NCBI GenBank assembly: GCA_964471165.1
Contig: CAYYEX010000003.1
Coordinates: forward strand, 79,499 to 143,498
Direction of reading: 5' to 3'
Length of the DNA: 64,000 nt
From: an uncultured Candidatus Saccharibacteria bacterium
Lineage (GTDB): Bacteria; Patescibacteriota; Minisyncoccia; Phycocordibacterales; UBA2100
Part shown: one piece after another, positions 11,435-36,765 of the stretch
How positions within the stretch are numbered: position 1 is the stretch's first letter
How the letters are laid out: each line of letters opens with the position of its first letter
Program-made: the position numbers and the translations under genes
Notes under the pieces: generated by a model
What the model was told of the DNA's origin: nothing
The model's input: the letters and a program-made list of their open reading frames with translations, nothing else
The model's database searches: none

Positions 11435-13162
11435 TTAACCCGTCCAGTTGAAGAGGAGAATCGAGAAGTCGGCCAAGTTTACCGTATTGTCCTCGTTGAT
11501 ATCGGCATCGGGGTCATCCTCGTTCCAATGCGTGAGCAAAATCGAGAAGTCGACCAAGTTTACTTTTCCGTCTTTATTGATGTCGGAGCGATTGTCGTTA
11601 TCGACCTGTCGCGATGGAGCCTCCCCCACTCCCACGTACACAGGCGCGCTGTATTCACTCGAGGCAGATGGGGTAACTGTTTTTACTTTAATATCATACG
11701 TGCCACGTTTTAAATCTTTTGCGGGGATTGTAAACTCCCAGACTCCACCAGTGCCTGCAGCATTCTCTAGTGAGGTAGACGCTGTGTACTCCTTCGCTAC
11801 CCCCGCTGTGCCACTTGCCGGCACATCGCGAACAATGAGGTGAACGATGGTTCCCGGCACTCCAACGCCGGAGACACGCACACTCTCGGCCAGAGCAACC
11901 GATTCGGAATCGGGCGAAATCGTTGGTGAAAGCAGAACTCCGGTAATACCGTTTACCGTACCGGCATTCAACGTGAGCGTCGAAGAAAAACGTGACGACT
12001 TTCGTGCTCTTGCGTCAGTTGCAAAACTCACGAACGAATAGGTGCCTCGCTCAAGCGCTGAAATTGTTGTGCTAAATGCGCCGCTGCTTCCCGCAAGCAC
12101 GTTGGCCTGCTGCGTGCCGTCTTTCAATATTGTTACCGAGCTGTTTGCTGGTGCAAATCCGGAAATCTTTACCGTTGACTGGAACAGCAGTGAGCTGCCG
12201 CCCGCAAATGAGCCCGCTCCTCCAGAACCACCTGCCCCACCCGCTCCCGTAGACGCAACCCCCGGCGTATTGCCATCCGATGTCGTAACCGTTGGCGTGG
12301 TTGCGAGTGAAAACGTGTGCACGTAGTCGCTCTGTGCTGTTGCTCCGAATGTGTCGCGACAACGGATGTAGTACGAATAGGTTCCCCCGTCAGCGAGGCC
12401 GCTCACAACGCCGTAATGGAGTTGCTGGCCAACCGCTGAAAACGTGTTTGGCATTGATGCATACGTGATTCCAGAGGATGTGGCGTATTTGCAGGTCGCC
12501 ATAACATTTGTTTGAAATGAGAGCTCAACCATGGCGCTTCCAGCCGGAATTGTTCCTGTCGGGAGCGCATTTAATACCTGTGGCGCATTATCGGTGACGA
12601 CAGTCGTAAGCGTAATCGGGGTCACAACCACAAACATTGCTTTGGCGTCGTCGATTGGGGTTGCGCCGTTTGCCGTGTTCACACGAACGCGGTACGAACC
12701 AGGGAGCGCTGGGTTGACGGGCGATACATCTCCAACAACTTGGTGAGTCGCATTCGTGCCAAGAATAACGCGCACTGATTCATTTGCTGCAATGCCACTA
12801 CCCGATGAAAGCGCAATCGTGATTGAACCCGAGGCACCGCTTACAACCGTGACGCCGTCTTCGCTCGCACTCGGTAACGCTGCAAGGTTGTGTTCCGCAT
12901 ACGGTCCGCCGTTGGAGACTGCAACATCAACGTCGGTAAAATCAAATCCTCCGGGAATACTGAAGGCATCTTCGGGAGTAATGGTAATCGTTCCCGATGC
13001 GGGCACTGCGTTTCTGACCGTGAACGTAACAATATGGTTCGCGGCACTCGAAGGCACAGAAGTTGAAATGAGATCCGAAATCGGTGACATGTATCCCGCC
13101 TGTACAGTATGCAAAGCAATGAGCGGTAGCACGAACGTTATTACAACAAGAAAGCGCCGCAT
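11435..13162 (-). CDS. secreted Ig-like/beta-sandwich repeat protein with a C-terminal type-I dockerin domain
   Basis: Signal peptide MRRFLVVITFVLPLIALHTVQA. The ORF extends to 13429, but the start was chosen at 13162 just after the upstream stop. The C-terminal tandem DINKDGKVNLVDFSILL ... DINEDNTVNLADFSILLFNWTG forms canonical dockerin Ca-binding repeats. Confidence 0.7.
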   Translation of the reverse strand: MRRFLVVITFVLPLIALHTVQAGYMSPISDLISTSVPSSAANHIVTFTVRNAVPASGTITITPEDAFSIPGGFDFTDVDVAVSNGGPYAEHNLAALPSASEDGVTVVSGASGSITIALSSGSGIAANESVRVILGTNATHQVVGDVSPVNPALPGSYRVRVNTANGATPIDDAKAMFVVVTPITLTTVVTDNAPQVLNALPTGTIPAGSAMVELSFQTNVMATCKYATSSGITYASMPNTFSAVGQQLHYGVVSGLADGGTYSYYIRCRDTFGATAQSDYVHTFSLATTPTVTTSDGNTPGVASTGAGGAGGSGGAGSFAGGSSLLFQSTVKISGFAPANSSVTILKDGTQQANVLAGSSGAFSTTISALERGTYSFVSFATDARARKSSRFSSTLTLNAGTVNGITGVLLSPTISPDSESVALAESVRVSGVGVPGTIVHLIVRDVPASGTAGVAKEYTASTSLENAAGTGGVWEFTIPAKDLKRGTYDIKVKTVTPSASSEYSAPVYVGVGEAPSRQVDNDNRSDINKDGKVNLVDFSILLTHWNEDDPDADINEDNTVNLADFSILLFNWTG

Positions 13163-13163
13163 A

Positions 13164-14009
13164 CTATAAATCTTTGACGCAGCGGAATCCGGCAGCCTCG
13201 CCTGCGAATGACGAAGGCACCGTAATGTTGATTGCGTATTGTCCTGCATCGGCCTGACTATTCCAGTAGCCGCCGCGCAAAATACCGCGCGTGTCGGTTG
13301 GGTCGAGCCAGAAATAATCGTTGAAAAACGATTCATCGGGAGTGTCGTGGTTAGTCGCAACCGGTGTGCCGTCTCCATCGATTCCCGTAATGTATCCCTC
13401 TTCAGGAAGCTTTTTTCCTTTGAACTCACCGTCGGTCACTGTTTCTTGCATCCACTCCCACGCGTTTCCAATCATGTCATACGCGCCCGACGGCGACACA
13501 CAATCTTTTCGTACGCCTGTTTTGTCCACCGCACCGCTGCCACGCAGACCCACGTTGCAGCTATCACTGGTGAGCGTTTCGCTGTCGGGCGTACCGAGCG
13601 CAGCTTTGTACCACTCAGATGCGCTCGGGAGCCGCTTGCCTGCACGCGCGCACGCATATTCCGCCTGGTCACGCGAAATGTTTCTCCACGGAGACTTTTT
13701 TGCAACGCTCGTCGGCTTACATGCCGAGATGGCAAGGTTATCGCTCGTTTGTGCTTTACTCGCAGGGTCTAGCGATGGACAGGAATCATTGGCAGATGCT
13801 TCATACGCGTCGATGCAGAAACCACCCCCGGTAGTGCCCACAAACGCCATTCCACTCGGGCATCTGCTCGCTTGCCCAGCAACTGCACTAAACGCCGCGC
13901 CGAGCATGGAGTTCTGCGGGGTGTCGCGATTATCAAATGCATTCAAACCGACTGTCGTGAATACGACCGTGCATACTGTCACAACGATCCATCGCAGGAG
14001 CGCTTTCAT
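13164..14009 (-). CDS. formylglycine-generating enzyme (FGE/SUMF1) family protein, secreted
   Basis: GNAWEW, RGGYWNS and GFRCV motifs of the FGE-sulfatase domain. N-terminal signal or anchor. Confidence 0.75.
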   Translation of the reverse strand: MKALLRWIVVTVCTVVFTTVGLNAFDNRDTPQNSMLGAAFSAVAGQASRCPSGMAFVGTTGGGFCIDAYEASANDSCPSLDPASKAQTSDNLAISACKPTSVAKKSPWRNISRDQAEYACARAGKRLPSASEWYKAALGTPDSETLTSDSCNVGLRGSGAVDKTGVRKDCVSPSGAYDMIGNAWEWMQETVTDGEFKGKKLPEEGYITGIDGDGTPVATNHDTPDESFFNDYFWLDPTDTRGILRGGYWNSQADAGQYAINITVPSSFAGEAAGFRCVKDL

Positions 14010-14040
14010 TCACTCTAGTATAACGTGGCCGATGGATATG

Positions 14041-14445
14041 CTACGCAATCATCCGACGTCCGCGTCGGAAATCCATATAGTAGTTTGCGGCAACAAGAAC
14101 GAGCACAAGGATGCTGACGCAAAAACTTGCGGCCGCCAATGTGCGCGTACTGGTGAGCGACCCGCCCGAGATAGCTGCCACAGTTGCTTCGCGCGCATCA
14201 AGATCTGCCTGTTTTTGTGCGAGCTGCTCTGCTGCAGTGTTATACGGATTTGCCGGCACTCCAGCTGTCATGCCAATAACTGCGCTTCCCGCCATAGAGG
14301 CAGCGGTGTTTACCAGGACCTTCGGCGAGTCAATTGATGTGGCATACATAAACAGCGCAAGGGCAATCACAATCGCTGTGCGTCGAATCACCTCTTTTTC
14401 GTGTGAGACTGTATTTGGGCGCTTCTTCATGCATGTATTATGCAA
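14041..14445 (-). CDS. small 2-TM membrane protein
   Basis: ORF with two hydrophobic helices. Overlaps the upstream gene by 8 nt, so it is likely co-transcribed. Confidence 0.45.
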   Translation of the reverse strand: MHNTCMKKRPNTVSHEKEVIRRTAIVIALALFMYATSIDSPKVLVNTAASMAGSAVIGMTAGVPANPYNTAAEQLAQKQADLDAREATVAAISGGSLTSTRTLAAASFCVSILVLVLVAANYYMDFRRGRRMIA

Positions 14446-15511
14446 ACATCAGGAACAAAAGTACGAGGAACATGATGGCGAGGAACAAGAGCGCAAGGGC
14501 TATGATGAGCAGCTTTGGAACCGGCGACTGATTGCGACGCGCATATAAATCTCCCCCACCGCGTCCCCCGCTCATTTCGCGGAGCTTACGCGAGATATAC
14601 ATACGCACGAGCATATAGAGCACCAGGAGTGCCGCGAAGAGTGTGCCGAGCACGGTGAGAATAGGCTTGAGTGGAAGCACCCAGAAACTCGTCGCAGCGG
14701 ATACGGTTTTTCGACCATCTTCGCCGTAAACCATGCTCACAACTGCCTGGTATCTGCCAAATGCAACTCCGTCGTATTCCCACGTTTCAGTAAATGTTTT
14801 ATCGGTTGCCGGGAACACACCCGCCCCTATATCGTTTACTTTGACAACGCCGACTTTCGAACCCCGCATGTCAGTAATTTCTATAAGACCGTGCGGTCGT
14901 AGCAGAACATTACCGAGGTTGGCTATTCGCGTCTGTATATCTACCTGCGCTGCCGAACCATACACAATGTGCCCCGTTGAAAATTCGCGCAGCTGGGCGT
15001 CCTCAACCGCGTCGCCTGCAATGCGTAGATTGATGATTGAGCCAATTTTCAGACCGATTGCAGCCCCGTTCTCTCGCTGCTTCGGCGGTCGTGCGTCCAA
15101 AAAGACGCCGCCAAAGTGCGCACCCGGAGACGCGTCATTCGGCACACGAATGGTAAATGGAACACTTCGCGCTTCGTTGGGCCCGAGTGTAATCTGCGCA
15201 TCCGGCAATTCAATCCACGAACTTAATTCATATGGCGTAATTTCTGTTTCCTCGGAAAAGATTGGCAGGCCCGCATCAGTGAGGCCTGAAATATCTTGTG
15301 CAGTGAGATAGAACGTCTTTTCGCTACTGGAAATATTCGTGACACGAATCGTAAAGTTATAGACTTCGCCAGGATCCGCACGGTCTTCAATAACAGCCGG
15401 CTTGATTTCGATACCTTCTGATAATTGTGCAAATGCAGCGTTTGCCCCTATCAGTAATGTAAGGACGATGACAGATATGCCTACAAGCTGGTTTCGCAGT
15501 GTTGCGTTCAT
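14438..15511 (-). CDS. cell-surface protein with DUF916/CscA-like architecture (signal peptide, ~270-aa ectodomain, TM, cytoplasmic tail)
   Basis: Paralogous to the 17015, 18352 and 36775 proteins. Shared blocks include VPNDASPGAHFGGV, LREFSTGHIVY, NLGNVLLRPHGLIEITDMRGS and GRYQAVVSMVYGEDGRKTVSAATSFWVLP. The family assignment is by architecture and memory, not by search. Confidence 0.55.
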   Translation of the reverse strand: MNATLRNQLVGISVIVLTLLIGANAAFAQLSEGIEIKPAVIEDRADPGEVYNFTIRVTNISSSEKTFYLTAQDISGLTDAGLPIFSEETEITPYELSSWIELPDAQITLGPNEARSVPFTIRVPNDASPGAHFGGVFLDARPPKQRENGAAIGLKIGSIINLRIAGDAVEDAQLREFSTGHIVYGSAAQVDIQTRIANLGNVLLRPHGLIEITDMRGSKVGVVKVNDIGAGVFPATDKTFTETWEYDGVAFGRYQAVVSMVYGEDGRKTVSAATSFWVLPLKPILTVLGTLFAALLVLYMLVRMYISRKLREMSGGRGGGDLYARRNQSPVPKLLIIALALLFLAIMFLVLLFLMFA

Positions 15512-15559
15512 GGTTGCTGATCGAAAAAAGATTATGTGATTACTCTACCACGGCCCCTG

Positions 15560-15597
15560 CATGCAACATCCCCGCTACACTGCGGGGATGTTGCATG
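15560..15597. other. perfect 16-bp hairpin (catgcaacatccccgc-tacact-gcggggatgttgcatg) in the intergenic region between two surface-protein genes
   Basis: Seen in the sequence. Lies between the stop at 15618 and the next start at 15511. It may be a terminator or attenuator without a clear T-tract, or an operator. Confidence 0.6.
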
Positions 15598-15617
15598 AAA
15601 ACAAGACTTTTTCGAGC

Positions 15618-16763
15618 TTAGAAGATAGGTGTTGCGACGTAGGTCAGTGTGTTGGTGTAATCAGAACCTGCTTCCTGCAGCGTTCCGATTTCCAATTTGT
15701 ACGCTACAGTCGTCGAGCCTACACCGGCGGTTACGCCATCAGCTGGAGCGTTGTGATACATCACTTGGCGAGGCACGTTGAATTCACCAGAGAAGAGCTG
15801 TGTGCCGAACTCATCGCCACCTGATAGCACTGCGTCGTCACTCGTGAGGCCGAGGTGTCCATACGTGGCTTCTGTACCAAGTGTATTGAGTGGAGATGTC
15901 CAGGCGGTGGGCGTGCTATTAGCACCATCCTTGAAGGTGTCGATATCAGCACCCGTTGATGAGAGGAGGTTTGTGTCTTCGACAACAGTCACCGAGTAAC
16001 CGAAGGCAGCGTTTGTGACTACGTTCAACCGTTGACCGAGCACTTTTGGCGCACCGGCCGTCAGCGTACCGAAGGCCAGATACGTCGATGAGGAGAATCC
16101 GGTCAGTGTTTCGCCGTTTACAACAGACGATGTAGCCATGCCGGTAATCGAGAATGTGAATGTTGTGTCCACCGAAGCGGTTACAACCACATCGTCGATG
16201 GCAACAACACGCGTTTCGCCGAAGTCGCTGTTACCGCTGTTTGTCATCGTGATGCGGTACGAGCCAGCCGTAATAGGATTGGTGATAATTGGCGTTGAGG
16301 TACCGATAACAAGTGTCTTTGCTCCCGAGGTAACAGTGTCACCCGCGCAGACCGTGAAGGAAAATCCTTCCGAGCCACCGGTGTAATTTTGCGAGAATGT
16401 GACTTCGTCTGACCCACCACCGCATGTGGTAACGAGCGTCATGCCCGTAGTTTGAATCTGCGTCGTGGTTGCTGATGGACCAATCATTGAGAAGTTGCTT
16501 CCTGCAGGATCGAGCACAAATGCCATCACGCTCCCTGCTGGAGATGATGATGCTGTTGTGAAGCGCACAACGTGCTTCGTTGCGACGCCGAGATCGGAAT
16601 CCGACAGCGTGTCGCTGATGCTCGTCACCTGTGCGGCGTCTGCCCTATGCATAAGCAAGGGTGCGCCCGTGGCCCACAGCAAGGTTGCGATGATGAGAAC
16701 CATTGCAAGGGGCGACGAGAGGACCGACGCAGCCGGATGCTTAACTTGTTCGAATAGGTTCAT
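15618..16763 (-). CDS. secreted surface protein (381 aa), partner of the DUF916-like anchor. C-terminal tail ...TLTYVATPIF.
   Basis: Signal peptide, a Thr/Ser/Gly-rich beta-rich composition, and a conserved C-terminal block shared with the 19704-21041 protein (YK[LV]E...Y.[VI].TP[IV]F). Confidence 0.55.
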   Translation of the reverse strand: MNLFEQVKHPAASVLSSPLAMVLIIATLLWATGAPLLMHRADAAQVTSISDTLSDSDLGVATKHVVRFTTASSSPAGSVMAFVLDPAGSNFSMIGPSATTTQIQTTGMTLVTTCGGGSDEVTFSQNYTGGSEGFSFTVCAGDTVTSGAKTLVIGTSTPIITNPITAGSYRITMTNSGNSDFGETRVVAIDDVVVTASVDTTFTFSITGMATSSVVNGETLTGFSSSTYLAFGTLTAGAPKVLGQRLNVVTNAAFGYSVTVVEDTNLLSSTGADIDTFKDGANSTPTAWTSPLNTLGTEATYGHLGLTSDDAVLSGGDEFGTQLFSGEFNVPRQVMYHNAPADGVTAGVGSTTVAYKLEIGTLQEAGSDYTNTLTYVATPIF

Positions 16764-17014
16764 ATAAATAGAACTTTTTTGGCTTCTTTAATAAGCGTGT
16801 TAATTGCGCGAATGTGTCTGCACCCTAGAGAGAAAATACGCGTCCACCTGCTATCGCTCGACCGAAGCAGCTAAAAACGTACGGGGCCTGATAAACTCGC
16901 ATGTGTAAAGTATACGGCATCCTGTTGACAAAGAAGTTGATATCAAGCCAAACCATGTGGATAACGGCCTAAAAACGTGGATTTCTGGGTGGATAACACT
17001 GTGGAGAGCGTGTT

Positions 17015-18355
17015 CTACTGCTGCTCGCGTGGAACATCCGGCCCCATTTGCTCCTGTTGCGGGAGTTCTTTTATCTCGAAACTGCGCGCTGGCACAAGCA
17101 CAGTCGCGAAATAGAGCCATATTCCCGCAATAGATGCGGCAGAAATTACCAGAAACACAAAGAAAAGCTTGTATTTGCGCACAAAGCCCCCAAATGTAAG
17201 TGGTGCGCGATACGTCGGTGTCTCAAGCGGCATATCTATGTGCTTCGCTGATGCGATGCTTCTCAAATCAACAACCCCCTCCTTGATTGGCTGCACCAGC
17301 GCCCGCAACGACGGCATGTGTTCAACGGGTTCTTGTACCTGCCTGTCGGGCACATCAAGATGCTCTGGAATACCCCGATACATGCGCTCAAGCGCAAGTG
17401 CTCGCCGAATGTAGCGGCGGATAAACCAAGTCATGAGAAAGCCAATGAAGAGAATGATTCCGAGAGTAATCGCAGCAGGAACCATCGGGATTACCCAAAA
17501 ATAGGTGGTGGCAGATGTGCTTTGCTTGCCATCATCTCCGTATCCGAGTGTCACGATTGCGCTGTAGCGACCAATGTCGAGCAGATTCTGTTCTCCGCTC
17601 CAGGAAAACTCGAACTTCCGGACGGACCGTGGCAGCACATTGCCAAAGTTACTGTTTTCGTTGATAAGCACCTGTCCGCGCTCCTTACCCCACATGTTAT
17701 AGAGCGTGATTGAACCCTGCGGACGCAGGTGCGTGTTGCCAGTGTTTTCAAAACGAAGCGCGAATTTTGCTTCGGGACGCTGATAGAGCGAGCTATCAGT
17801 TGTGAACTCTCGAATGCGTCCACTCTCTATTATTTCGCCCCTAATACGCACAAATAATAGAGAGGTGACGAAACTCGATACTTTCATATGCGAGCCCGCT
17901 TCGGAATCACTCCCCTTGTACGGACCGACCATTATCGCAGCGTAGTGGCCGCCGGGATCGGCATTCTCCGGAACCTGCACAGTGAATTCAACCTGTGCAC
18001 TTTCTCCCGCTTGAATGGTTATCGGCTCCTTTGATATCGCAATCCATGCACCGAGTGAATCGGTGCGCTTGGGCTCATTCGTAAATGACTCGATGAGTGG
18101 CACAAATTTACCCTGACCACTTTCGCCCTGCGATTCAAAATCAACCACCTGTGCACCATAGGTGACAGCATATGAATTGTTATTGACGACCCGAATGTTG
18201 CTCGTCCACGACTCCCCAGGGCCAACGGTGAGTTGAAAAAGTGGCGGCGTGATTGTGACGGAGAGCGATTCTTGAGCCGACGCCGAGAGCGGCGAAATAA
18301 GCAGTGCTCCAATCATGAGCGCAGCGAGTGACGCGCGCCGCAATGCGAACGTCAT
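17015..18355 (-). CDS. DUF916/CscA-like membrane-anchored surface protein (446 aa) with an extended cytoplasmic tail containing a second TM
   Basis: Paralog of 14438-15511, with shared blocks VPENADPGGHY, IREFTTDSSLY, NTGNTHLRPQGSITLYNMWGK and GRYSAIVTLGYGDDGKQSTSATTYFWVIP. Confidence 0.55.
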   Translation of the reverse strand: MTFALRRASLAALMIGALLISPLSASAQESLSVTITPPLFQLTVGPGESWTSNIRVVNNNSYAVTYGAQVVDFESQGESGQGKFVPLIESFTNEPKRTDSLGAWIAISKEPITIQAGESAQVEFTVQVPENADPGGHYAAIMVGPYKGSDSEAGSHMKVSSFVTSLLFVRIRGEIIESGRIREFTTDSSLYQRPEAKFALRFENTGNTHLRPQGSITLYNMWGKERGQVLINENSNFGNVLPRSVRKFEFSWSGEQNLLDIGRYSAIVTLGYGDDGKQSTSATTYFWVIPMVPAAITLGIILFIGFLMTWFIRRYIRRALALERMYRGIPEHLDVPDRQVQEPVEHMPSLRALVQPIKEGVVDLRSIASAKHIDMPLETPTYRAPLTFGGFVRKYKLFFVFLVISAASIAGIWLYFATVLVPARSFEIKELPQQEQMGPDVPREQQ

Positions 18356-19671
18356 AGTCCGTTTTTGAGGTTGATGACATGTCCAACGTTTCGTTTCTGC
18401 GCCACCTGTGGTTGTGAAGACGTGAGGTCGATGGTGCGCGGGGCCTGCTCGCGCTGCGCGGGAGCTTGCTGCACCTCGTGCACCGCTACCTCGGCTTGCG
18501 TCGCGACATGCGCTGACTCTGGCACAGGCACAGGCACAGCTTCAACAACTGCTGCAGATGCTACTACTTCTGTGCGCTTCTCACGCTTGAAGCGAGCAAA
18601 GAAGCCTTTTTTTACAGGTTTCGGTTGCTCGGGCATGATTGCCGTAAACTTTTTTGGTGCGGCTGCGGGGGTGAGTACCATCCCAACAGGGGCCGGCATA
18701 ACTCCCGCTCCCGCTCCCGCAAGAGCAAATCGCTGCATATGACGGTGTTCAAGCCATCGATGGAAATAGAGAGCCGAAACAATAATCGCAATCACACTCA
18801 CCACAAAAATCGCCGCGAGTTGCTGCCACGGGATAATCCAGAAGAAAACTGTGTCTTGCAACGAACCGCTTTGATTGTTGCCGTAGTCAATATTGAGAAA
18901 CGCCTTGAACTTACCGAAACCCTGCGCAGAACTCCAAGCGCTCGCTAACTGCGCTGCTTGTTCAGGCGTAAACGACTTTCCGTCCGGGTTCACGGGAACC
19001 GAGGCCACTTCCCTGCCTTTGCGGTCGTAGATACGGATTTCTCCCTTTGGCATCAAACTCTGATTGCCTATATTCTCGAGTTGGTAGTTAAATAACACGT
19101 CGTCACCAGAAAAGAAGAAACTGTCGGTGACGAACTTGTTGAGTTGCATAGACTCCTTTATCTCTGCCTGTACATCGGTGTTCACCGTAACAACCCCCAG
19201 CGGGCTTCTGGCTTGCGCCTCTGCCAGTGTGGAACCTTCGTAGAACGAGATATCTGCATGGTAGGTGCCCGGAAGTGCATTGAGACTGACGCGCACTACA
19301 AACGGAATCTCACGCGTCTCGCCCGGTTTCAACTCAACAACGCCGCGTGAGATTTCTATCCAGTTGGCCAGAGAGTCTTTTTTATCATCGGCCCCGAGTG
19401 CTGATACGAACTCTTCTTGCCCTTCCTGAGGCGTCACATCGTTGACGGTTGTGTATAGATTGAGTTTCCGCTGCGTCGTATTGGTAACAGTTATGGCTTC
19501 TTTGAGAATGTCGCGAGCCTTTGCTTTTTCGTCAACGACGACAGGTACAACCGTGAGGTCCGCAGTTGAATCGGCGCGCGCGATAAACGGATAGGAAATA
19601 GCAATGACGGCGAGCACAAACAGAGGAAGAATTGCAAAACGCTGCGTCATATGTGCATGTAGGGACAGCAT
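18352..19671 (-). CDS. DUF916/CscA-like membrane-anchored surface protein (439 aa) with an Ala/Pro/Val-rich cytoplasmic tail
   Basis: Same architecture and motif blocks (LENIGNQSLMPKGEIRIYDRKG ... FFWIIP). A 4-nt overlap with the downstream paralog indicates an operon. Confidence 0.55.
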   Translation of the reverse strand: MLSLHAHMTQRFAILPLFVLAVIAISYPFIARADSTADLTVVPVVVDEKAKARDILKEAITVTNTTQRKLNLYTTVNDVTPQEGQEEFVSALGADDKKDSLANWIEISRGVVELKPGETREIPFVVRVSLNALPGTYHADISFYEGSTLAEAQARSPLGVVTVNTDVQAEIKESMQLNKFVTDSFFFSGDDVLFNYQLENIGNQSLMPKGEIRIYDRKGREVASVPVNPDGKSFTPEQAAQLASAWSSAQGFGKFKAFLNIDYGNNQSGSLQDTVFFWIIPWQQLAAIFVVSVIAIIVSALYFHRWLEHRHMQRFALAGAGAGVMPAPVGMVLTPAAAPKKFTAIMPEQPKPVKKGFFARFKREKRTEVVASAAVVEAVPVPVPESAHVATQAEVAVHEVQQAPAQREQAPRTIDLTSSQPQVAQKRNVGHVINLKNGL

Positions 19672-19703
19672 AACAAGGAAATGTGATGGAATTTATACAC
19701 AGT

Positions 19704-21041
19704 TTAAAAAACGGGGGTTACGATATACACGATTGCTCCCTGATATGCGCCTGCATCCTGCGAATCTCGCACTTCGACTTTATAAATAATATCGGTACTC
19801 GAGGCAGACGTCGGGCCGGAGCCATATGCGACTTCCGTCGGACTCGAAGTAAAGCGCGCGAACGAATCATCTGCCGCGAAACGAATCGAACCACCTTCAA
19901 GCACGTCTTCTCCTGTGTGGTATCCGTAACAACCGGTCGATGTGGCCGAGCACGCACTCGTCCATCCCGCCGGCGAATCGTTCGTAGAGAGTACCGGTGG
20001 AATCTCACGTGCACTCGGGCTGAGCAAGCCCTGGCGCTGATAGGTATAGATTTTGTATCCGTTGTCGGCGTTCGTGGTGACGGTGAGCCGGTGCGCCCCG
20101 ATACGGGGTGTACCCAGTCCAAGCGCTCCAAAACTCACACTTGTTGGCTGCGTGGTGATATCGGTGGTCACACCTTCTGTACTCGCCCCGGATGAGATAC
20201 CTCCAATCGAGAACGAGATTGTGCCACCATCAACCACCAAACTGGGGTACGTCTCACCCGTGTTCAGCGGGACGGGAACATTTGTCACCTTATCGACAAG
20301 GCGGAAGTAATAGACGGTGCTCTCGAGCGCATCTGTTTGTTTAATCGTAAAGTCGAACTCTTTGCGTGTACTGCCAAAAAAGAAGAATGGCGACGTTGTG
20401 GTGCCAGATTTATTATATGAACCACATCCATTGCCCACACTACCCGAACACGCCTGCGGATCAGAAAGCGTTATCTCGGCAATAACGCCGTTGTCCGCGC
20501 CCCCGCCAGGTGCGTAACACCAAACCACCAATGCGCTGCATTCACCATTTTCACCGACGAACACTTCCCCGACCGAGAAGTCGGACGATGTGGAATATTG
20601 CAGACGAAACTTTATATTCGAGTAATCGGGGCCAAGGTTGTTAACAGTGATGCGAAGTTTAAATGGATCGTCGTATGGAATCGCTGACGGGGCAACGTTT
20701 TCCCCTGCATACGGAACGAGAGGCGTTGCTTGAGGCGCATCGTCGTACCAGCGCCAATTTTGCGATGCGAATGGACTGACGTCGGCAGGATACAGGTATC
20801 CGCCTGCGAGTGAGAAACTCGTACTTGTGGATTCACCATCTCCGTTTGGGTCCATTGAACCGAATGCCGTGAAGCTTGAGGTTGTGGAATACCCGCCCAT
20901 CTGTGTGAATCCATTATCGTTCATACGAAAACCGCTACTCGTCAATTCGTCGGCGAGAACGGATGCGGCGGATACCGCAATTATCAAAAACGCACACCCC
21001 GCGCCGAGTATTTTGTTCCTTGCTGTGTGCGAGCGTGTCAT
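19704..21041 (-). CDS. secreted surface protein (445 aa), paralog of the 15618 protein. C-terminal tail ...AIVYIVTPVF.
   Basis: Signal peptide and a conserved C-terminal block (IIYKVEVRDSQDAGAYQGAIVYIVTPVF). Lies upstream of two DUF916-like genes. Confidence 0.55.
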   Translation of the reverse strand: MTRSHTARNKILGAGCAFLIIAVSAASVLADELTSSGFRMNDNGFTQMGGYSTTSSFTAFGSMDPNGDGESTSTSFSLAGGYLYPADVSPFASQNWRWYDDAPQATPLVPYAGENVAPSAIPYDDPFKLRITVNNLGPDYSNIKFRLQYSTSSDFSVGEVFVGENGECSALVVWCYAPGGGADNGVIAEITLSDPQACSGSVGNGCGSYNKSGTTTSPFFFFGSTRKEFDFTIKQTDALESTVYYFRLVDKVTNVPVPLNTGETYPSLVVDGGTISFSIGGISSGASTEGVTTDITTQPTSVSFGALGLGTPRIGAHRLTVTTNADNGYKIYTYQRQGLLSPSAREIPPVLSTNDSPAGWTSACSATSTGCYGYHTGEDVLEGGSIRFAADDSFARFTSSPTEVAYGSGPTSASSTDIIYKVEVRDSQDAGAYQGAIVYIVTPVF

Positions 21042-21043
21042 GG

Positions 21044-31335: not shown

Positions 31336-31342
31336 GATAATT

Positions 31343-32013: not shown

Positions 32014-32048
32014 GAAAAATCTGAAATAGTTGGTATATCTAGTCCGGG

Positions 32049-32065
32049 TATCTCATGGGGTATAC
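32049..32065 (+). promoter_or_regulatory. copy of the motif TATCTCATGGGGTATAC followed by the RBS GAGGAGG (32069-32075) and the ATG at 32083
   Basis: The motif ends 17 nt before the start codon. The spacing suits a -10 element plus a short leader. Confidence 0.5.
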
Positions 32066-32082
32066 ACTGAGGAGGCTTCTCC

Positions 32083-32859: not shown

Positions 32860-32874
32860 TGCTAAACTTTTCTC

Positions 32875-33657
32875 ATGTTGAGGAGAATCGCTGATTTTGT
32901 ACACCAAATTGGTATTCTCCATGCGATTGCAGTTCTGGTGCTACTTGTTGCCTCGACAACAGTGCTCATCAACCGTGGTAGCTCAATCGTGACGCTCATG
33001 GCTGGAAGTGCCGCCTCGCTCGGCAATGAAACGGTGCTCTATTTTTCACCACACAGCTCCAGCACGCTGAAGGTCGGAGAAACCACCGACGTTGATATTC
33101 GCATCAACACAAAGACCGCAATTAACACTGTGGGTGCCACCATCAAATTCCCGGAGGACTCGCTTGAAGTCGTTGGTATTAGTAAGGAAGATTCGTTCCT
33201 CGACTTGTGGACTGAGGAAACGACCATCAGGGAAGGTACTGGTGAAGTTCACTTTAGCGGTGGCACCCTTACTCCAGGAGGACTCACTGGTGTCGGTACG
33301 ATTGTTACGCTCACAATAAAAGCAAAAAAATCTGGCTCTGCACAAATCTATTTCAAAGACATGCAAATCTTTGCGGCCGACGGGAAGGGTTCCGAGGTAG
33401 AAAGCGGTAAACGCACATACACCTTTGAGATTCCCGAATCAACGCATCAGCTTGCCGGGGCATCTGGAAACATGAATGAAGAAAAGCTTGCACCGCCCAC
33501 CATCGATTTCAACGGTGATGGCAAAATTAACGTCGTCGATCTCTCGATTATGGCGTTCCAGGTCATCGCACCATATAACGCAAAATTCGACCTTGACCGC
33601 GACGGAGCGAGTTCGCTTGCTGACCTTTCGATATTCTTTACGAGAATGCGTGAGTAA
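32875..33657 (+). CDS. cohesin-like domain protein with a C-terminal dockerin (adaptor scaffoldin-like, 260 aa)
   Basis: N-terminal TM/signal. The central domain VLYFSPHSSSTLKVGETTDVDIRINT...IKFPEDSLEVVGISKEDSFLDLW...TIVTLTIKAKKSGSAQI follows the cohesin beta-sandwich pattern. C-terminal dockerin repeats are IDFNGDGKINVVDLSIM ... FDLDRDGASSLADLSIF. Confidence 0.6.
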   Translation: MLRRIADFVHQIGILHAIAVLVLLVASTTVLINRGSSIVTLMAGSAASLGNETVLYFSPHSSSTLKVGETTDVDIRINTKTAINTVGATIKFPEDSLEVVGISKEDSFLDLWTEETTIREGTGEVHFSGGTLTPGGLTGVGTIVTLTIKAKKSGSAQIYFKDMQIFAADGKGSEVESGKRTYTFEIPESTHQLAGASGNMNEEKLAPPTIDFNGDGKINVVDLSIMAFQVIAPYNAKFDLDRDGASSLADLSIFFTRMRE

Positions 33658-33672
33658 CGCTGCCGATTCGCC

Positions 33673-34668
33673 TTACGGCATCCTGCGTCCGCTATTCAAT
33701 GACTTCGCAAGCGTTTTGCGACTGAACAAATATCCGATAATGCCGCCCACTGCGACGAGCAACAACAAGTATGGCAGCGCGAGGCCAAGCATCGGTGTCA
33801 TCGTTTCAACCGCCGCGGCAAAACCTTGCGGTCGTGCCACGATAACTACTTTGTCTGATGCAAAAGTCTCACTTGCCGAGGAAACTTGTACCCATGCGCG
33901 GTATACACCACGCTCTGCCGGTTCTGCTGCAACATACGTAAATGATCCGGTATTGGTGCTTTGAATCGTACTTTCTTTTGGTGCATCGTCTTCAAACTGC
34001 AAAAACACCGACAGTGCGGAGTTTGGCGACGCGGTTCCCTGCAGTACGATGCGCCCGCCGATTGCGACACGGTCGTCGTACCCCATGATAGCCGGCACCT
34101 GGACTGATACACCTTTGACCTCAGGGGTTGGCGTGAGCTCCGGTTCGGCACTGGTCGCAACTACTGTTTGTAGTTCCGGTGCCGGTGGTGTTTCCCTCGC
34201 CACAATAGTGTAAAGCGCAGAGCGCATACCGGTAATGATATTCGTCGCACGAGCATCGTTGAGCAGCAGCGCACCGGAATCTATGTGCACATCTCCCGGT
34301 AGTACGCTTTTTGCTTTGAACGTGATGGTCACGAGGGCTGCGTCGGAGGCAGCGAATCCCTCACCCGCAGTCCCCGAAAAACGCAACGTCCCACTTTCGT
34401 TTGAGAAGACCACAGGAGTGGGCCAGAGTGAAAGGACTGACCCTTGGGTGGATACGCGTTCAACTGAGAGTGCAGCCGGGTTATACGATATATCCGCCTC
34501 TGCGGCATTGGCTGCTACACCGTCGGTGTTCGCGCGGACCACGACTTCAAACGATTCCCCGATGCCGTATGTGGCGCGTGCAGGTGTGATAAACAAAACA
34601 CCTTCTGCTGCTGCCGAAACCGACGGCAATGCGAGAAGAATAAAGAGCGCCGCAAAACGGTATCTCAT
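33673..34668 (-). CDS. cohesin-like domain protein with a C-terminal TM anchor (331 aa)
   Basis: Signal peptide. The segment GVLFITPARATYGIGESFEVVVRANTDG...ADISYNPAALSVERVSTQGSVLSLW...LVTITFKAKSVLPGDVHI aligns by eye with the cohesin pattern (GDtv.v.v......isYdP..L.v......i....F........v.F..........G.fa.i.fk). A Pro/Thr linker follows, then the C-terminal TM LGLALPYLLLLVAVGGIIGYLF. Confidence 0.6.
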   Translation of the reverse strand: MRYRFAALFILLALPSVSAAAEGVLFITPARATYGIGESFEVVVRANTDGVAANAAEADISYNPAALSVERVSTQGSVLSLWPTPVVFSNESGTLRFSGTAGEGFAASDAALVTITFKAKSVLPGDVHIDSGALLLNDARATNIITGMRSALYTIVARETPPAPELQTVVATSAEPELTPTPEVKGVSVQVPAIMGYDDRVAIGGRIVLQGTASPNSALSVFLQFEDDAPKESTIQSTNTGSFTYVAAEPAERGVYRAWVQVSSASETFASDKVVIVARPQGFAAAVETMTPMLGLALPYLLLLVAVGGIIGYLFSRKTLAKSLNSGRRMP

Positions 34669-35627
34669 GCGCTCGTAGTCTTTTTCAGGCGGTCACGACG
34701 CCACATGAAGAGCCCTATACACAGAAGCCCCCCAATGATAAGTGCGAGGATTGTGTAATTCGTTTCCTTCGGAACGCGCACTGGGGCACTGCCCTCTACG
34801 TATGTGCCGAGTCGCTCGTTGCCGGCCTTATCAATTGCCTTTACCTGCACCCCACCGAGAAGCCGCTGATCGCGCAATTCGTGCGGGCTTGTCACCTGCT
34901 TCCATGCGCCGCGCTCAAAAAGCTCGTAGTGATCGATACCGCTCTGTTTGTCCTGTGTGGCAAAAACTGCGTAATAGTTTCCTGCAAACACGCCGCGCGT
35001 TGATTCCACAGTTACCTGGAACTCATCCGGTGGAATTTTATCGCTCCCGACTTCGGCGAGCCATGGATCGCCACTCGAAAGCGGAGTCGGTGAAATTGAG
35101 TATGTGGCGCTCTGCGCGGTAAGTTTTGCAGGGGTAGCAGCACCGTCGTTGAGGTACACGAGCGACGTCTGAGAAATGGAAACTGCGGCACTTTTTTCGC
35201 TCGCCCCAATAACACTGAATACAATCTTACCGAGTACATTCGAAAGAATCGGGTCACCGGGGATGCGTCCGCAGTATCCACCCGGAATACCTCCCGAGAA
35301 GGTTACGACTCCTTTTTGAGTATCAATAACAGGCTCTTCAACCCACAGACTCAGGATTGAATTGCCTTTGCTGAAATCGACAGCACGCAGCGTCTGTGTG
35401 GGATAGCGAACCTCGACGTGCGCGGCGTTGACACACTCGCCCTGGTTATCAATGCGGATGTCCGCGATGAACGTGTCGGAGAGTCCATACGCCCCCTCTG
35501 TTGGATTCACATACAAAATTGCAGCGCTCGCCGTAAATGGCAACAACAGCACAGAGACAGCAGCATATGTCAGGGTCGCCCGAATGATTCGTGACATATT
35601 GTCAGTATAGCGGTTTTTTATATGCAT
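34665..35627 (-). CDS. cohesin-like domain protein with a C-terminal TM anchor (320 aa)
   Basis: Signal peptide. The segment AILYVNPTEGAYGLSDTFIADIRIDNQGECVNAAHVEVRYPTQTLRAVDFSKGNSILSLW...ILSNVLGKIVFSVIGASEKSAAVSI is cohesin-like. C-terminal TM is ILALIIGGLLCIGLFMW. A 4-nt overlap with the preceding gene. Confidence 0.55.
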   Translation of the reverse strand: MHIKNRYTDNMSRIIRATLTYAAVSVLLLPFTASAAILYVNPTEGAYGLSDTFIADIRIDNQGECVNAAHVEVRYPTQTLRAVDFSKGNSILSLWVEEPVIDTQKGVVTFSGGIPGGYCGRIPGDPILSNVLGKIVFSVIGASEKSAAVSISQTSLVYLNDGAATPAKLTAQSATYSISPTPLSSGDPWLAEVGSDKIPPDEFQVTVESTRGVFAGNYYAVFATQDKQSGIDHYELFERGAWKQVTSPHELRDQRLLGGVQVKAIDKAGNERLGTYVEGSAPVRVPKETNYTILALIIGGLLCIGLFMWRRDRLKKTTSA

Positions 35628-35631
35628 ATGG

Positions 35632-36765
35632 TTAGCCCGTCCAGTTAAAGAGCATTATGGAGAAATCACCCAAATTCACGGTCCCATCGCCGTTGAAATC
35701 GCTCTGAATATCGTCGGTGTTCCATTTCAAGAGAAAGATTGAAAAGTCGACGAGGTTCACCTTGGTGTCACCGTTTAAGTCTGCGGTGCCCGTGTCGGCA
35801 AATGCCCCCTCACCTACGCTAAACGATATCGATTTTCCAAATCCAGATTGAATACCGCCATCTTGTTTAAAATACGCTTTCACCGAATGCAGTCCGTCGG
35901 TGAGGGATTTCGTGTCGACGCGAATTGCCCATGCGCCACTGGCGTCCGCTACTGCATTCAATGTAGTTTTTGTTTCCCCGCCAATCTCACTCGCCACGCT
36001 TGCTTTTGGCACCGTAAATCCAGAAACCGTCAGGGGGTCCCCTTTGGGAACCTGTCGTTCGGAGACCGCTATAGTTGGTGGAAAAAACACGTTTGCAACG
36101 GTGGAAACTGCGCTCTGCGCTACATCGAAAACGATTGAGGTCGTTATCGACTCAACTCCGTTTTGATCCTTTGCGGTAAATCCGAACGTTGCTGTGCCGG
36201 GCGTTATGTCGGTTGAGGAAAATTGAAAATCCGCATTCGTATCCGCAAGCGTCGTCCCCTTTACTTTGCCGTCGAGCAAAATATTTACCGTACTATTCGG
36301 ATATGCTTTGCCGCGCAAAACCACACGCGTCTGTGTTTCGGAAACGATGCCGCCGGGTGCTGCGCCTGGCACAAACGGGGTTGAGCCCACTGTCGGCGAA
36401 CCCGAAACGGTTGAGCCAGCAGGTGCGAGCGTGCGACAAGAAAGTGAACAGAGATCCGTTGATATTGTATTGCCATCGTCACACTGCTCTTCGAATCGAA
36501 CCTGCAGAACCCCATCTCCGCAGTATTCTGCAAATGATTGGCAACCAGAATTGCATTTTCTCTCCGCGGTTGTAGAACCGTAGCCACCCAGGTTCGTGCC
36601 GTCGTCACATACTTCCCCCACGCTCGTAAAGGCGTCACCGCACACGAGTAGCGTCACCGAAGTACTGATGTCATCTGCGGCAACACCCTGAATCATTGCG
36701 GCCAAGAGCATCGCTGACGCGATAATAATACCCGGGATGACGAGAGGTTTGTGTGTCGTTCTCAT
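35632..36765 (-). CDS. secreted protein with myxo-type cysteine-rich repeats (CxxDGxxxxxExCDDGN), an Ig-like domain and a C-terminal dockerin
   Basis: CGDAFTSVGEVCDDGTN and CGDGVLQVRFEEQCDDGNT repeats. C-terminal dockerin ADLNGDTKVNLVDFSIFLLKWNTDDIQSDFNGDGTVNLGDFSIMLFNWTG has the same FNWTG ending as the 11435 protein. Confidence 0.65.
   Translation of the reverse strand: MRTTHKPLVIPGIIIASAMLLAAMIQGVAADDISTSVTLLVCGDAFTSVGEVCDDGTNLGGYGSTTAERKCNSGCQSFAEYCGDGVLQVRFEEQCDDGNTISTDLCSLSCRTLAPAGSTVSGSPTVGSTPFVPGAAPGGIVSETQTRVVLRGKAYPNSTVNILLDGKVKGTTLADTNADFQFSSTDITPGTATFGFTAKDQNGVESITTSIVFDVAQSAVSTVANVFFPPTIAVSERQVPKGDPLTVSGFTVPKASVASEIGGETKTTLNAVADASGAWAIRVDTKSLTDGLHSVKAYFKQDGGIQSGFGKSISFSVGEGAFADTGTADLNGDTKVNLVDFSIFLLKWNTDDIQSDFNGDGTVNLGDFSIMLFNWTG

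Follow-up and report, generated by a model that had tools for sequence, protein, structure and literature searches.

What do cohesin and dockerin modules assemble when they occur together on a bacterial contig without the enzymes that they usually organise? This question is raised by a 64-kb stretch of DNA (the window) from an uncultured, ultra-small bacterium (CPR/Paceibacteria), in which a preliminary description had proposed a repurposed display platform. When the six reading frames were scanned with a strict motif, exactly three dockerin sites emerged, at 11584(-), 33505(+) and 35700(-). The proteins containing dockerins and cohesins are organised as follows (DNA coordinates, strand, name and layout):

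11435..13162 (-), IgDoc: signal peptide, head (~170 aa, common to the b381 family), middle region, two Ig-like domains, class-1 dockerin with FNWTG end (DNA 11438-11605)
32875..33657 (+), CohDoc: N-terminal hydrophobic helix (aa 14-32), cohesin (aa 53-186; DNA 33031-33432), disordered linker (aa 192-204), class-2 dockerin (aa 207-260; DNA 33493-33654)
33673..34668 (-), CohTM_A: signal peptide, cohesin (about aa 22-160; DNA 34189-34605), single Ig-like spacer, C-terminal membrane helix (hydropathy peak, aa 287-305; DNA 33754-33810)
34665..35627 (-), CohTM_B: signal peptide, cohesin (about aa 35-180; DNA 35088-35525), Ig-like domain with DKQSG...DKAGN motif (about aa 190-285), C-terminal membrane helix (hydropathy peak, aa 291-309; DNA 34701-34757)
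35632..36765 (-), CysDoc: signal peptide, Cys-rich DUF4215 / myxo_disulf_rpt head (aa about 40-111), two Ig-like domains (Big_6 / Ca_tandemer-like), class-1 dockerin with FNWTG end (aa 322-377; DNA 35635-35802)

All three cohesins that had been proposed were recovered, two of them above the gathering threshold of Pfam Cohesin PF00963 (24.1 bits) and the third by hhalign and its predicted fold. CohTM_A scores 35.5 bits at aa 36-127, its orthologues (~580 aa) reach 45.1 bits and additionally match Big_13, and CohDoc scores 28.6 bits at aa 61-176. CohTM_B, whose start is placed at 35597 in public gene calls (310 aa), has no match in Pfam; it is still a cohesin as judged from its predicted fold and from the comparison of its family profile with the cohesin of CohTM_A (hhalign probability 98.4%, E 8e-15), and the three modules mutually match in BLASTP searches at ~1e-11. 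In the AlphaFold2 model of CohDoc (pLDDT 81.7), the dockerin helices span residues 220-231 and 248-259, and its pTM of only 0.55 implies that the arrangement of the domains is not given by the model. The top 50 Foldseek matches of this protein are cohesins throughout, including that of Archaeoglobus fulgidus (2xdh), with the OlpC cohesin 4dh2_A as best match (E 5.7e-10, TM 0.72). The C-terminal anchors described for CohTM_A and CohTM_B are supported by hydropathy and by an AlphaFold2 helix predicted at 282-308, and a basic tail follows each hydropathy peak. CohDoc itself is probably tethered to the membrane by its N-terminal helix. CohTM_B further stands out in that 55 columns and the GGIPGGYCGRIPGDP loop are invariant, and in having a Cys pair; since this conservation far exceeds the needs of a passive socket, the protein may have a second function.

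The dockerins consist of a duplicated 22-residue F-hand and fall into two conserved sequence classes, with class 2 found on CohDoc only. Relative to the Pfam Dockerin_1 threshold of 22.9 bits, IgDoc scores 25.1 bits, CysDoc is placed exactly at threshold and CohDoc falls below it with 20.5 bits, its orthologues reaching 27.5 and 30.9 bits. In 69 class-1 sequences, the calcium-ligand positions 1 and 12 are Asp in 100% and position 3 is Asn in 97%, position 5 is Asp in 100% of first repeats and Asp or Asn in 73% and 23% of second repeats, and Asn occupies position 9 in 97% of first and 59% of second repeats. The W-T-G end of this class is invariant, and the FNWTG tail noticed earlier is indeed common to IgDoc and CysDoc, which share LFNWTG as terminus. 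All three dockerins claimed in the preliminary description are thus present, but they are not uniformly canonical type-I modules: that of CohDoc belongs to the distinct and more divergent class 2, and its assignment to the D-x-N-x-D-G-x-V-N-x-x-D-F-S-I type was rejected. Family profiles match solved dockerins in the PDB, which are the sole matches of IgDoc and which appear for CysDoc as 4fl4_A, 2y3n_B and 1daq, together with a pappalysin Cys repeat. HMM searches and predicted folds both agree with the modules as assigned.

CysDoc and IgDoc each have conserved orthologues, and both follow the layout head, Ig, Ig, dockerin. For IgDoc, we consider ATG 13162 as the most likely start (575 aa, including the signal peptide), rather than GTG 13429 of the longest ORF; its orthologues (~570 aa) contain PF00404, PF19077 and PF17936. 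The C-terminal 249 aa of the protein, comprising the Ig-Ig-dockerin cassette, are 34% identical to aa 145-377 of CysDoc, and an unassigned stretch of ~150 aa separates the cassette from a head that is homologous to the N-terminal domain of b381 (hhalign 99.3%). In b381 proteins, this type of head is found on a different C-terminal domain, and the shared cassette and the swapped head form the pattern expected of an exchangeable dockerin anchoring module. As described previously, the cargo is composed of Ig-like and Cys-rich modules and not of enzymes: Pfam and NCBIfam searches of the dockerin proteins returned only Big_6, Big_13 and DUF4215 / myxo_disulf_rpt (for CysDoc, DUF4215 at 35, Big_6 at 21.7 and myxo_disulf_rpt at 42 bits), and no enzyme domains were found on CysDoc or IgDoc.

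Conservation was assessed in 80 genome loci from Paceibacteria-type Patescibacteria (CPR). Across these loci, CysDoc, CohTM_B, CohTM_A and CohDoc recur in this order, with the complete set found in 43 of them; most of the others are cut by contig ends. The four genes are usually preceded by those of a MacB-type ABC transporter, an fn3 protein, a 635-aa protein and a WxLIP-like membrane protein. CohTM_A was detected in 74/80 loci in a six-frame HMM search, and CysDoc is located upstream of CohTM_B in 68/80, either adjacent to it or across a b381-type gene, as in Kaiserbacteria-like loci, where b381 orthologues lie between the two. In the window, CysDoc and CohTM_B are 4 nt apart, CohTM_B and CohTM_A overlap by 4 nt, and CohDoc is convergent to CohTM_A at a separation of 15 nt; the ~19 kb spanning 13.2-32.8 kb are occupied by other surface-protein genes. 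Up to 10 kb from each of the 80 loci, all dockerin carriers are of the CysDoc or CohDoc type. The locus is a conserved gene set and not a sporadic collection of adhesins. A description of it was not found in the literature, and it adds a conserved syntenic example to the known non-cellulosomal cohesin-dockerin systems.

We consider it likely that these genes encode a conserved envelope module of Paceibacteria, in which secreted proteins of non-enzymatic nature would be held at the cytoplasmic membrane by cohesin-dockerin pairing. The three single-cohesin membrane proteins CohTM_A, CohTM_B and CohDoc would act as sockets, and the class-1 dockerins of CysDoc and IgDoc and the class-2 dockerin of CohDoc as plugs. 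Calcium-dependent docking would then generate a linear stalk that runs from the membrane and TM helix through Ig, the cohesin::dockerin pair and two further Ig domains to the head, with the Ig spacer preceding the membrane helix in CohTM_A and CohTM_B keeping the cohesin off the membrane and the cargo head being outermost. As core pair, we infer CysDoc on CohTM_B, with the dockerin of CohDoc binding to CohTM_A and its cohesin receiving IgDoc as second class-1 plug, in a putative stoichiometry of three plugs for three sockets. Among plugs, conservation is highest for class-1 dockerins (mean p-distance 0.37), and among sockets for CohTM_B (0.51); in four loci whose downstream sequence extends over at least 3.5 kb, only CysDoc and CohTM_B are kept. 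CohDoc is always accompanied by CohTM_A (52/52 loci), an argument for pairing that is confounded by its position beyond CohTM_A, where a single rearrangement deletes both; a mirror-tree test did not discriminate between candidate partners. Of the proposed display platform, the membrane-anchored sockets are retained. Its interchangeable cargo is not, since plugs and sockets are conserved orthologues encoded together in 43/80 loci with no other carrier within 10 kb, and our best reading is thus a non-covalent surface stalk of fixed hetero-oligomeric composition instead of a mix-and-match scaffold. It probably serves to present binding heads by which the bacterium would attach to a host cell or to a substrate, 'adhesive' being a term suggested solely by the domain types.

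Non-cellulosomal cohesin-dockerin modules were reportedly surveyed by Peer and colleagues in 2009. Such a pair is found in A. fulgidus (PDB 2xdh), and in Clostridium perfringens cohesin modules reside on glycoside hydrolases, the GH33 sialidase NanJ and the GH84 protein NagJ (PDB 2vo8, 2jh2, 2w1n), with dockerins also carried by glycoside hydrolases, whereas the carriers described here are non-enzymatic. The present locus differs from these pairs in that its cohesins belong to integral membrane proteins ending in TM helices, that its dockerins are of two classes and that synteny is kept across a class-level lineage. As in the scaffoldins of Clostridia (OlpA/OlpB/OlpC/SdbA of C. thermocellum, ScaA/ScaB of Acetivibrio cellulolyticus), cohesins at the surface would hold dockerin-tagged partners, but anchoring is by membrane helices instead of SLH domains or sortase, and each protein contains one cohesin instead of a tandem array. 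CohDoc resembles an adaptor scaffoldin, as had been suggested, in combining both modules in one protein; unlike known adaptor scaffoldins, which are secreted, it is probably membrane-tethered. By description, CysDoc and IgDoc resemble SEML1_0315 from another Patescibacteria lineage, an essential dockerin-domain envelope protein of the saccharibacterium Southlakia epibionticum with a speculated role in host adhesion (Wang et al., 2023, PMC10633639). That report describes neither a cohesin partner nor a locus for SEML1_0315; a locus with candidate cohesin partners is present here.

The four genes are embedded in a wider conserved cluster (MacB-type ABC transporter, WxLIP-like membrane proteins) that the preliminary description had overlooked:

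36775-37782 (-), p335TM: WxLIP-like Ig protein with C-terminal membrane helix, syntenic partner
37861-39768 (-), p635: Cys-rich secreted protein, syntenic partner
39871-41079 (-), MacB/FtsX-type permease (MacB_PCD 73 bits, FtsX 58)
41081-42427 (-), ABC ATPase with 220-aa C-terminal extension (ABC_tran 106 bits)
42429-43892 (-), single-pass protein with fn3 / Pur_ac_phosph_N repeats (89-102 bits)

p335TM (hhalign 98% to WxLIP-like proteins) and p635 are kept in the same order in 54/80 and 55/80 loci. p635 has neither a Pfam nor a PDB match; its C-terminal domain recurs as the end of a neighbouring giant 5425-aa protein (aa 380-611 versus aa 5210-5406, 34% identity).

It is conceivable, if unlikely, that the cohesin and dockerin genes encode not a stand-alone display but one part of a larger envelope machine powered by ATP and comprising the giant protein, p229, p107, the fn3 protein, ATPase, permease, p635, p335TM, CysDoc, CohTM_B, CohTM_A and CohDoc, in which the transporter would serve mechanical work or export and cohesin-dockerin contacts would join extracellular parts. 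MacB/FtsX-type ABC systems (FtsEX, LolCDE, MacAB) are known for mechanotransmission to extracytoplasmic partners, and every product of the cluster is membrane-embedded or secreted. Its gene order is shared by many lineages, with permease, ATPase and fn3 protein in 44/80, 39/80 and 34/80 loci despite many of these being incomplete, and the permease is the best conserved protein of the cluster (median identity 62%); the domain shared by p635 and the giant protein points in the same direction. However, long conserved gene strings are typical of CPR genomes and synteny by itself does not prove a physical or functional link, no domain connects the transporter with cohesin or dockerin, and six loci (L009, L030, L031, L036, L058, L062) lack the transporter in the available upstream sequence. 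Somewhat more doubtful still is that the resemblance to cohesins and dockerins is limited to the fold and that the modules do not interact, the cohesin-like ones serving as Ig-like spacers or binding glycans or ligands, and the dockerin-like ones being Ca2+-stabilised EF-hand pairs or wall-polymer binders. That the proteins organise enzymes after all, as a minimal complex of the cellulosome or amylosome kind whose dockerin-tagged hydrolases are encoded outside the window, is highly improbable: the window covers 64 kb of a 173.5-kb contig and a few distant relatives of the IgDoc stalk region (P0418, P0420, P0421) have Pfam domains of the esterase, lectin or alginate-lyase type, but these relatives match only 16-34% of the query and have no recorded dockerin, dockerin-bearing enzymes are absent within 10 kb of all 80 loci, and, as the preliminary description had stated for glycoside hydrolases, no catalytic glycoside hydrolase, CBM or other CAZyme domain was found in the scanned ORFs of the window (most of 43), nor CAZymes among the dockerin carriers of the 80 loci. 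One cohesin per socket protein likewise argues against a multi-enzyme scaffold, and Paceibacteria have reduced genomes. The Ruminococcus bromii amylosome, a cohesin-dockerin assembly for non-cellulose use (Ze et al., 2015, PMC4611034), organises GH13 glycoside hydrolases, in contrast to the fixed stalk favoured here, for which no enzymes were seen in the data examined.

A second linked surface module (13164..21041) adjoins IgDoc:

13164-14009 (-), FGE-sulfatase-domain protein
14438, 17015 and 18352 (-), WxLIP_PGBD-like membrane proteins (14438 protein, 31.5 bits versus a threshold of 27.3)
15618-16763 (-), b381: secreted beta-rich protein
19704-21041 (-), b445: secreted beta-rich protein

WxL or Csc-type surface-protein clusters of Firmicutes, in which DUF916 (WxLIP_PGBD) membrane proteins are accompanied by WxL proteins, were reportedly described by Siezen in 2006 and by Galloway-Pena in 2015. 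The surroundings of the cohesin and dockerin genes, though not these genes themselves, resemble such clusters in their neighbouring WxLIP_PGBD-like proteins with C-terminal TM helices, each paired with secreted beta-rich proteins; none of 22 partner proteins matches Pfam WxL and no LPXTG protein was seen. The order b381-type, WxLIP, p130, FGE-sulfatase, IgDoc is kept in two further loci (L083 and L084).

The window encodes the following proteins that carry a cohesin, a dockerin or both:

11435-13429 (longest open reading frame): IgDoc, a cargo protein with a head, two Ig domains and a class-1 dockerin
32875-33657 (+): CohDoc, with an N-terminal hydrophobic helix, a cohesin, a linker and a class-2 dockerin
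33673-34668 (-): CohTM_A, with a signal peptide, a cohesin, an Ig-like spacer and a C-terminal membrane helix
34665-35627 (-): CohTM_B, of the same organization as CohTM_A
35632-36765 (-): CysDoc, a cargo protein organized as IgDoc

The presence of cohesins in three of these proteins, which had been proposed in the preliminary description, is borne out for CohDoc and CohTM_A by scores of 28.6 and 35.5 bits against Pfam family PF00963, both above the curated threshold of 24.1 bits. For CohTM_B, where the same search gives no match, it is borne out by the profile of its family, which aligns to the cohesin of CohTM_A with an hhalign probability of 98.4% (E 8e-15). A member of this family (P0033) reaches 26.5 bits against PF00963. 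The predicted fold is a nine-stranded β-sandwich of the jelly-roll type that is superposable on solved cohesins, and the top 50 matches in a structure search with the model of CohDoc (pLDDT 81.7) are exclusively cohesins, including the non-cellulosomal representatives from Archaeoglobus fulgidus (2xdh) and Clostridium perfringens. Based on the Pfam scores, the profile match and the structural matches, we thus consider all three cohesins as real. The CohTM_B family is large, with more than 1749 homologues, of which the best 120 show 50-75% identity. In a library clustered at 50% identity, it still has 1441 representatives at E≤1e-30. An alignment of 32 of its sequences contains 55 invariant columns, and its conservation far exceeds the needs of a passive socket. 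The cohesin of CohTM_B also harbors a conserved Cys55/Cys109 pair and an invariant inserted loop GGIPGGYCGRIPGDP at residues ~103-117 of the 310-aa form, of which residues 112-117 show low pLDDT in the model. Its second, Ig-like domain (DKQSG...DKAGN) recurs in 31 tandem copies in a protein of 4269 aa (P0215) and in 18 in a protein of 2468 aa (P0216), and its tandem repetition in such giant proteins elsewhere identifies it as a common stalk repeat.

The dockerins of IgDoc, CohDoc and CysDoc are similarly manifested in their sequences. Dockerins of type I consist of two tandem segments of about 22 residues, each with a 12-residue Ca2+ loop containing Asp or Asn at positions 1, 3, 5, 9 and 12 and a helix, and this duplicated arrangement is found here. 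With respect to the curated threshold of Pfam Dockerin_1 (PF00404) of 22.9 bits, IgDoc scores above (25.1 bits), CysDoc exactly at (22.9 bits) and CohDoc below (20.5 bits), although orthologues of the latter reach 27.5, 30.9 and 23.5 bits and one CysDoc orthologue 24.3 bits. The family profiles of CysDoc and IgDoc match the solved cellulosomal dockerins 4fl4_A, 2y3n_B, 1daq and 2yik (E ~5e-4 to 8e-4), and a strict scan for the loop motif in six frames of the 64 kb returns exactly three sites, one in each of the three proteins. Together, the Pfam scores (via orthologues in case of CohDoc), the motif scan and the profile matches confirm the three dockerins initially noticed, and the window thus encodes three sockets and three plugs.

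The dockerins fall into two classes. In class 1 (69 sequences), both repeats contain D at position 1 (100%), N at position 3 (97%) and D at position 12 (100%), while position 5 is D in 100% of first repeats and D (73%) or N (23%) in second repeats, and position 9 is N in 97% and 59%, respectively. Its consensus starts with D-x-N-x-D-G-K-V-N-L-V-D-F-S-I-x-L-x-x-W and ends with D-x-N-x-D-G-x-V-N-L-x-D-F-S-I-M-L-F-N-W-T-G followed by the stop codon. The F-S-I motif, the W and the Ca2+ ligand positions are 97-100% conserved, except for the lower values at positions 5 and 9 of repeat 2, and the terminal W-T-G is invariant. In class 2 (38 sequences), D is found at positions 1 and 12 in all cases and at position 5 in 89-97%, with N or D at position 3. 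The class thus retains the Asp residues of the loops, whereas its helix faces differ from class 1. Across the loci described below, dockerins are confined to two types of protein, with class 1 found on CysDoc, and in the window also on IgDoc, and class 2 restricted to the C-terminus of CohDoc. The existence of two classes implies at least two cohesin specificities.

In both cargo proteins, the dockerin follows the same cassette, since residues 417-664 of IgDoc and 145-377 of CysDoc share 34% identity and thus define a common Ig-Ig-dockerin unit equipped with different heads. The head of CysDoc is a Cys-rich DUF4215/myxo_disulf_rpt repeat, which also matches pappalysin. The head of IgDoc is homologous to the N-terminal domain of b381, a secreted β-rich protein (hhalign 99.3%, E 8e-21), where it is followed by a C-terminal domain unlike that of IgDoc and in common with b445, a second protein of this kind. 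The occurrence of one head on two different C-terminal modules would be expected if these were alternative anchors. Orthologues of IgDoc are conserved proteins of about 570 aa with matches to dockerin, Big_13 and Big_6, and the protein most likely starts at the ATG at position 13162, directly after the stop codon of the upstream gene, which yields 575 aa including a signal peptide.

The C-terminal membrane anchors attributed to CohTM_A and CohTM_B are supported by hydropathy and by AlphaFold2 helices, and both proteins contain signal peptides and basic tails following the membrane helix. CohDoc instead displays a single strongly hydrophobic N-terminal helix (aa 2-49, hydropathy 2.59) preceding its cohesin, which a disordered linker (aa 192-204) connects to a dockerin of two helices (220-231 and 248-259; AlphaFold2, pLDDT 80-85). 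This N-terminal helix may act as permanent membrane anchor rather than as cleaved signal. In adaptor scaffoldins, a secreted protein chain carries one or several cohesins along with a dockerin of other specificity and connects two further components. CohDoc, for which a resemblance to such proteins had been proposed, likewise combines both modules in one chain, and its dockerin class differs from that of the cargo, but it may be anchored by its N-terminal helix rather than secreted, and a bridging role would be putative.

The window forms part of a 173.5-kb metagenome contig (ENA ERZ27247837, k141_1527275). To place its genes into a wider context, we have used two invariant peptide motifs of the CohTM_B family to search GTDB, with each species represented by a single genome. 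In this way, 148 loci were confirmed, of which 80 were analysed with 10-kb flanks and their gene content assigned by BLASTP and six-frame HMM searches. The closest loci are from genomes of Candidatus Paceibacterota, Paceibacteria, Minisyncoccia, Adlerbacteria, Kaiserbacteria and similar groups, which identifies the source organism as a member of the CPR/Patescibacteria of the Paceibacteria (Parcubacteria) type. Genes recur in the order giant protein, p229, p107, fn3 protein, ABC ATPase, MacB/FtsX-type permease, p635, p335TM, CysDoc, CohTM_B, CohTM_A and CohDoc, with b381 located between CysDoc and CohTM_B in Kaiserbacteria-like genomes. Loci of latter genomes also contain a gene for a 220-aa protein between CohTM_A and CohDoc. 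The clade of the window carries a gene termed x258 upstream of CohDoc, which we considered as its counterpart and rejected, as no homology between the two could be detected (hhalign probability 1%). All four cohesin and dockerin genes are present in 43 of the 80 loci, with most exceptions being cut by contig ends. In the window, CysDoc and CohTM_B lie 4 nt apart, CohTM_B and CohTM_A overlap by 4 nt, and CohDoc is convergent with CohTM_A at a distance of 15 nt. A scan for promoters and terminators between 31 and 40.5 kb showed no excess of sites over shuffled sequence. IgDoc resides in a conserved context of its own, consisting of b381-type proteins, a WxLIP-like membrane protein, a 130-aa protein, an FGE-sulfatase-domain protein and IgDoc itself. 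In one locus (L029:3177-7442), three tandem CohTM_A-like paralogues of 402, 436 and 581 aa follow CohTM_B, as a local expansion of sockets.

From the co-encoding of dockerins and cohesins across the 80 loci we can only infer that a dockerin would bind its cognate cohesin in a Ca2+-dependent manner. In the assembly that we propose, the cohesin of CohTM_A or CohTM_B would be held off the membrane by its Ig spacer, which is longer and contains Big_13 in orthologues of about 580 aa, and a secreted head-Ig-Ig-dockerin protein would plug into it to form a stalk with the head outermost. Concerning the pairing of partners, CohDoc is never found without CohTM_A (both present in 52/52 loci). Of the loci whose downstream sequence extends for 5 kb or more, twelve contain CysDoc, CohTM_B and CohTM_A and lack CohDoc, and in four loci with 3.5 kb or more downstream, CysDoc and CohTM_B alone remain. 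Among plugs and sockets, conservation is highest for the class-1 dockerin and the cohesin of CohTM_B. Because of this co-occurrence and conservation, with gene order as a confounding factor, we favour an arrangement where CysDoc and CohTM_B would form a core pair and the dockerin of CohDoc and CohTM_A an accessory pair, which would leave the cohesin of CohDoc free for a second class-1 plug. A mirror-tree assignment from domain distance matrices of 35 loci did not discriminate between partners, as shared phylogeny dominates (all r 0.55-0.87).

The described features set the system apart from cellulosomes, where dockerins are borne by glycoside hydrolases or other CAZymes, multi-cohesin scaffoldins usually contain a CBM, and anchoring to the cell wall proceeds via SLH repeats or sortase LPXTG signals. 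Here, each of the three cohesin proteins contains a single cohesin and no CBM, and anchoring of CohTM_A and CohTM_B would be by C-terminal transmembrane helices with basic tails. In searches with Pfam, NCBIfam and profiles, we did not find a catalytic domain on the dockerin proteins, and neither a catalytic glycoside hydrolase nor CBM, SLH or LPXTG elements in the cohesin and dockerin proteins or the other window ORFs scanned, in agreement with the initially described lack of associated glycoside hydrolases. The sole glycosidase-related match, to Ig_Rha78A_N in the giant protein, concerns an N-terminal domain of Ig type, and none of the 80 loci has a further dockerin carrier at a distance of up to 10 kb. 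It is formally possible that dockerin-tagged enzymes are encoded elsewhere in the genome, beyond the 64 kb examined. Since multi-cohesin scaffoldin, dockerin-tagged CAZyme and SLH or sortase anchor were each searched for and not found in the ORFs scanned, the system is not a cellulosome and, as judged from its sequences, would work like a cohesin-dockerin anchoring pair. Of the initial view of a cellulosome-like system repurposed to display adhesive modules, the architecture stands, whereas the proposed roles in adhesion, as adaptor and as display platform would be putative or require revision.

Non-cellulosomal cohesins and dockerins occur in all three domains of life, with examples in A. fulgidus, in glycoside hydrolases of C. 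perfringens and in the amylosome of R. bromii, and were reportedly surveyed by Peer et al. in 2009. The Paceibacteria (Parcubacteria), which belong to the most abundant of the uncultured bacteria, presumably live in attachment to other cells, and little has been described of the molecules on their surface. In a full-text search of the literature on cohesins and dockerins in CPR, Parcubacteria, Patescibacteria and Paceibacteria, we found no description of the locus. The closest relation is to a dockerin-domain protein of the envelope, reported to be essential, in the saccharibacterium Southlakia epibionticum (PMC10633639). The NCBI pipeline already names some CohTM_B homologues 'cohesin domain-containing protein [Minisyncoccia bacterium]', while the integral-membrane single-cohesin proteins, the non-enzymatic orthologous cargo, the two lineage-specific dockerin classes and the class-wide synteny appear to be undescribed. 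With a surface complex that is conserved throughout the class and composed of well-understood and easily expressed binding modules, attachment and the displayed molecules would become directly testable. For the cohesin-dockerin field, the system would be a case where the pair serves as a fixed joint in a structure built on integral membrane proteins whose partners are non-enzymatic, and it would add two new specificity classes of dockerins as possible orthogonal connectors.

Between about 11 kb and its end at 64 kb, the window mostly encodes secreted or membrane proteins, which include the following neighbours:

13164-14009 (-): protein with FGE-sulfatase (SUMF1-like) domain and N-terminal membrane helix, directly upstream of IgDoc
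14438-21041 (-): three paralogous WxLIP_PGBD-like proteins with C-terminal TM helices (14438, 17015, 18352), together with b381 (15618-16763) and b445 (19704-21041), assigned by Pfam and hhalign
22867-31533 (-): secreted protein of 2888 aa with Gly_rich_2 and a Peptidase_G2 intramolecular-chaperone autoproteolytic domain
37861-39768 and 47717-63991 (-): p635 and the giant protein (>5425 aa, runs off the window), with a common C-terminal region
39871-43892 (-): MacB_PCD/FtsX permease, ABC ATPase with an unassigned C-terminal extension of ~220 aa, and fn3/Pur_ac_phosph_N repeat protein
44375-46978 (-): PD40/He_PIG protein of 867 aa, an insertion between p229 and p107 in comparison with the gene order of other loci

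The last ~230 aa of p635 and ~200 aa of the giant protein are 34% identical, and their common region may, by sequence, serve as shared anchoring or assembly domain. Pfam matches of the giant protein are confined to Ig_Rha78A_N and DUF2341, while p635 has none and the search of the PDB with its family profile was empty. The permease, ATPase and fn3 protein accompany the cohesin genes in synteny in about half of the loci, and within the cluster, conservation is highest for the permease (62% median identity). In light of the neighbouring surface components, the domain shared by p635 and the giant protein and the highly conserved permease, it is conceivable, though in our view unlikely, that the cohesin and dockerin genes provide the extracellular coupling elements of an undescribed, lineage-defining envelope apparatus of Paceibacteria. 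In such an apparatus, the MacB-type ABC transporter and its fn3 partner would power the assembly, tensioning or remodelling of stalks and the giant surface protein for attaching to or feeding on host cells, with the GGIPGGYCGRIPGDP loop and Cys pair of CohTM_B conferring a second activity beyond dockerin binding.

Domains of the Peptidase_G2 type are typical of phage tail-spike or endosialidase-type proteins, and homologues of the 2888-aa protein adjoin the cohesin locus in L003, L013, L015, L024 and L083. The adjacency of the FGE-sulfatase protein and IgDoc is kept in L083 and L084, where the former is duplicated. The membrane protein p335TM (36775-37782) is related to the three WxLIP_PGBD-like proteins (hhalign 98%), of which the one at 14438 scores 31.5 against a threshold of 27.3 and those at 17015 and 18352 score below. 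Clusters of the WxL or Csc type combine a DUF916/WxLIP_PGBD membrane protein with secreted WxL-domain (PF13731) proteins. The common C-terminal domain of b381 and b445, which ends in ..Y.ATP.F, and their WxLIP-like neighbours led us to consider both as WxL-domain proteins, an assignment that we rejected as 0/22 members of the b381/b445 family match Pfam WxL at E≤5 and profile searches of the PDB gave no matches. The likeness to WxL clusters is thus one of resemblance only. A 166-aa ORF at 9225-9725 (-) is spurious, as it overlaps two tRNA-Thr genes on the + strand (9419-9494 and 9668-9743), and a separate FtsE/FtsX pair is located at 6552-8310.
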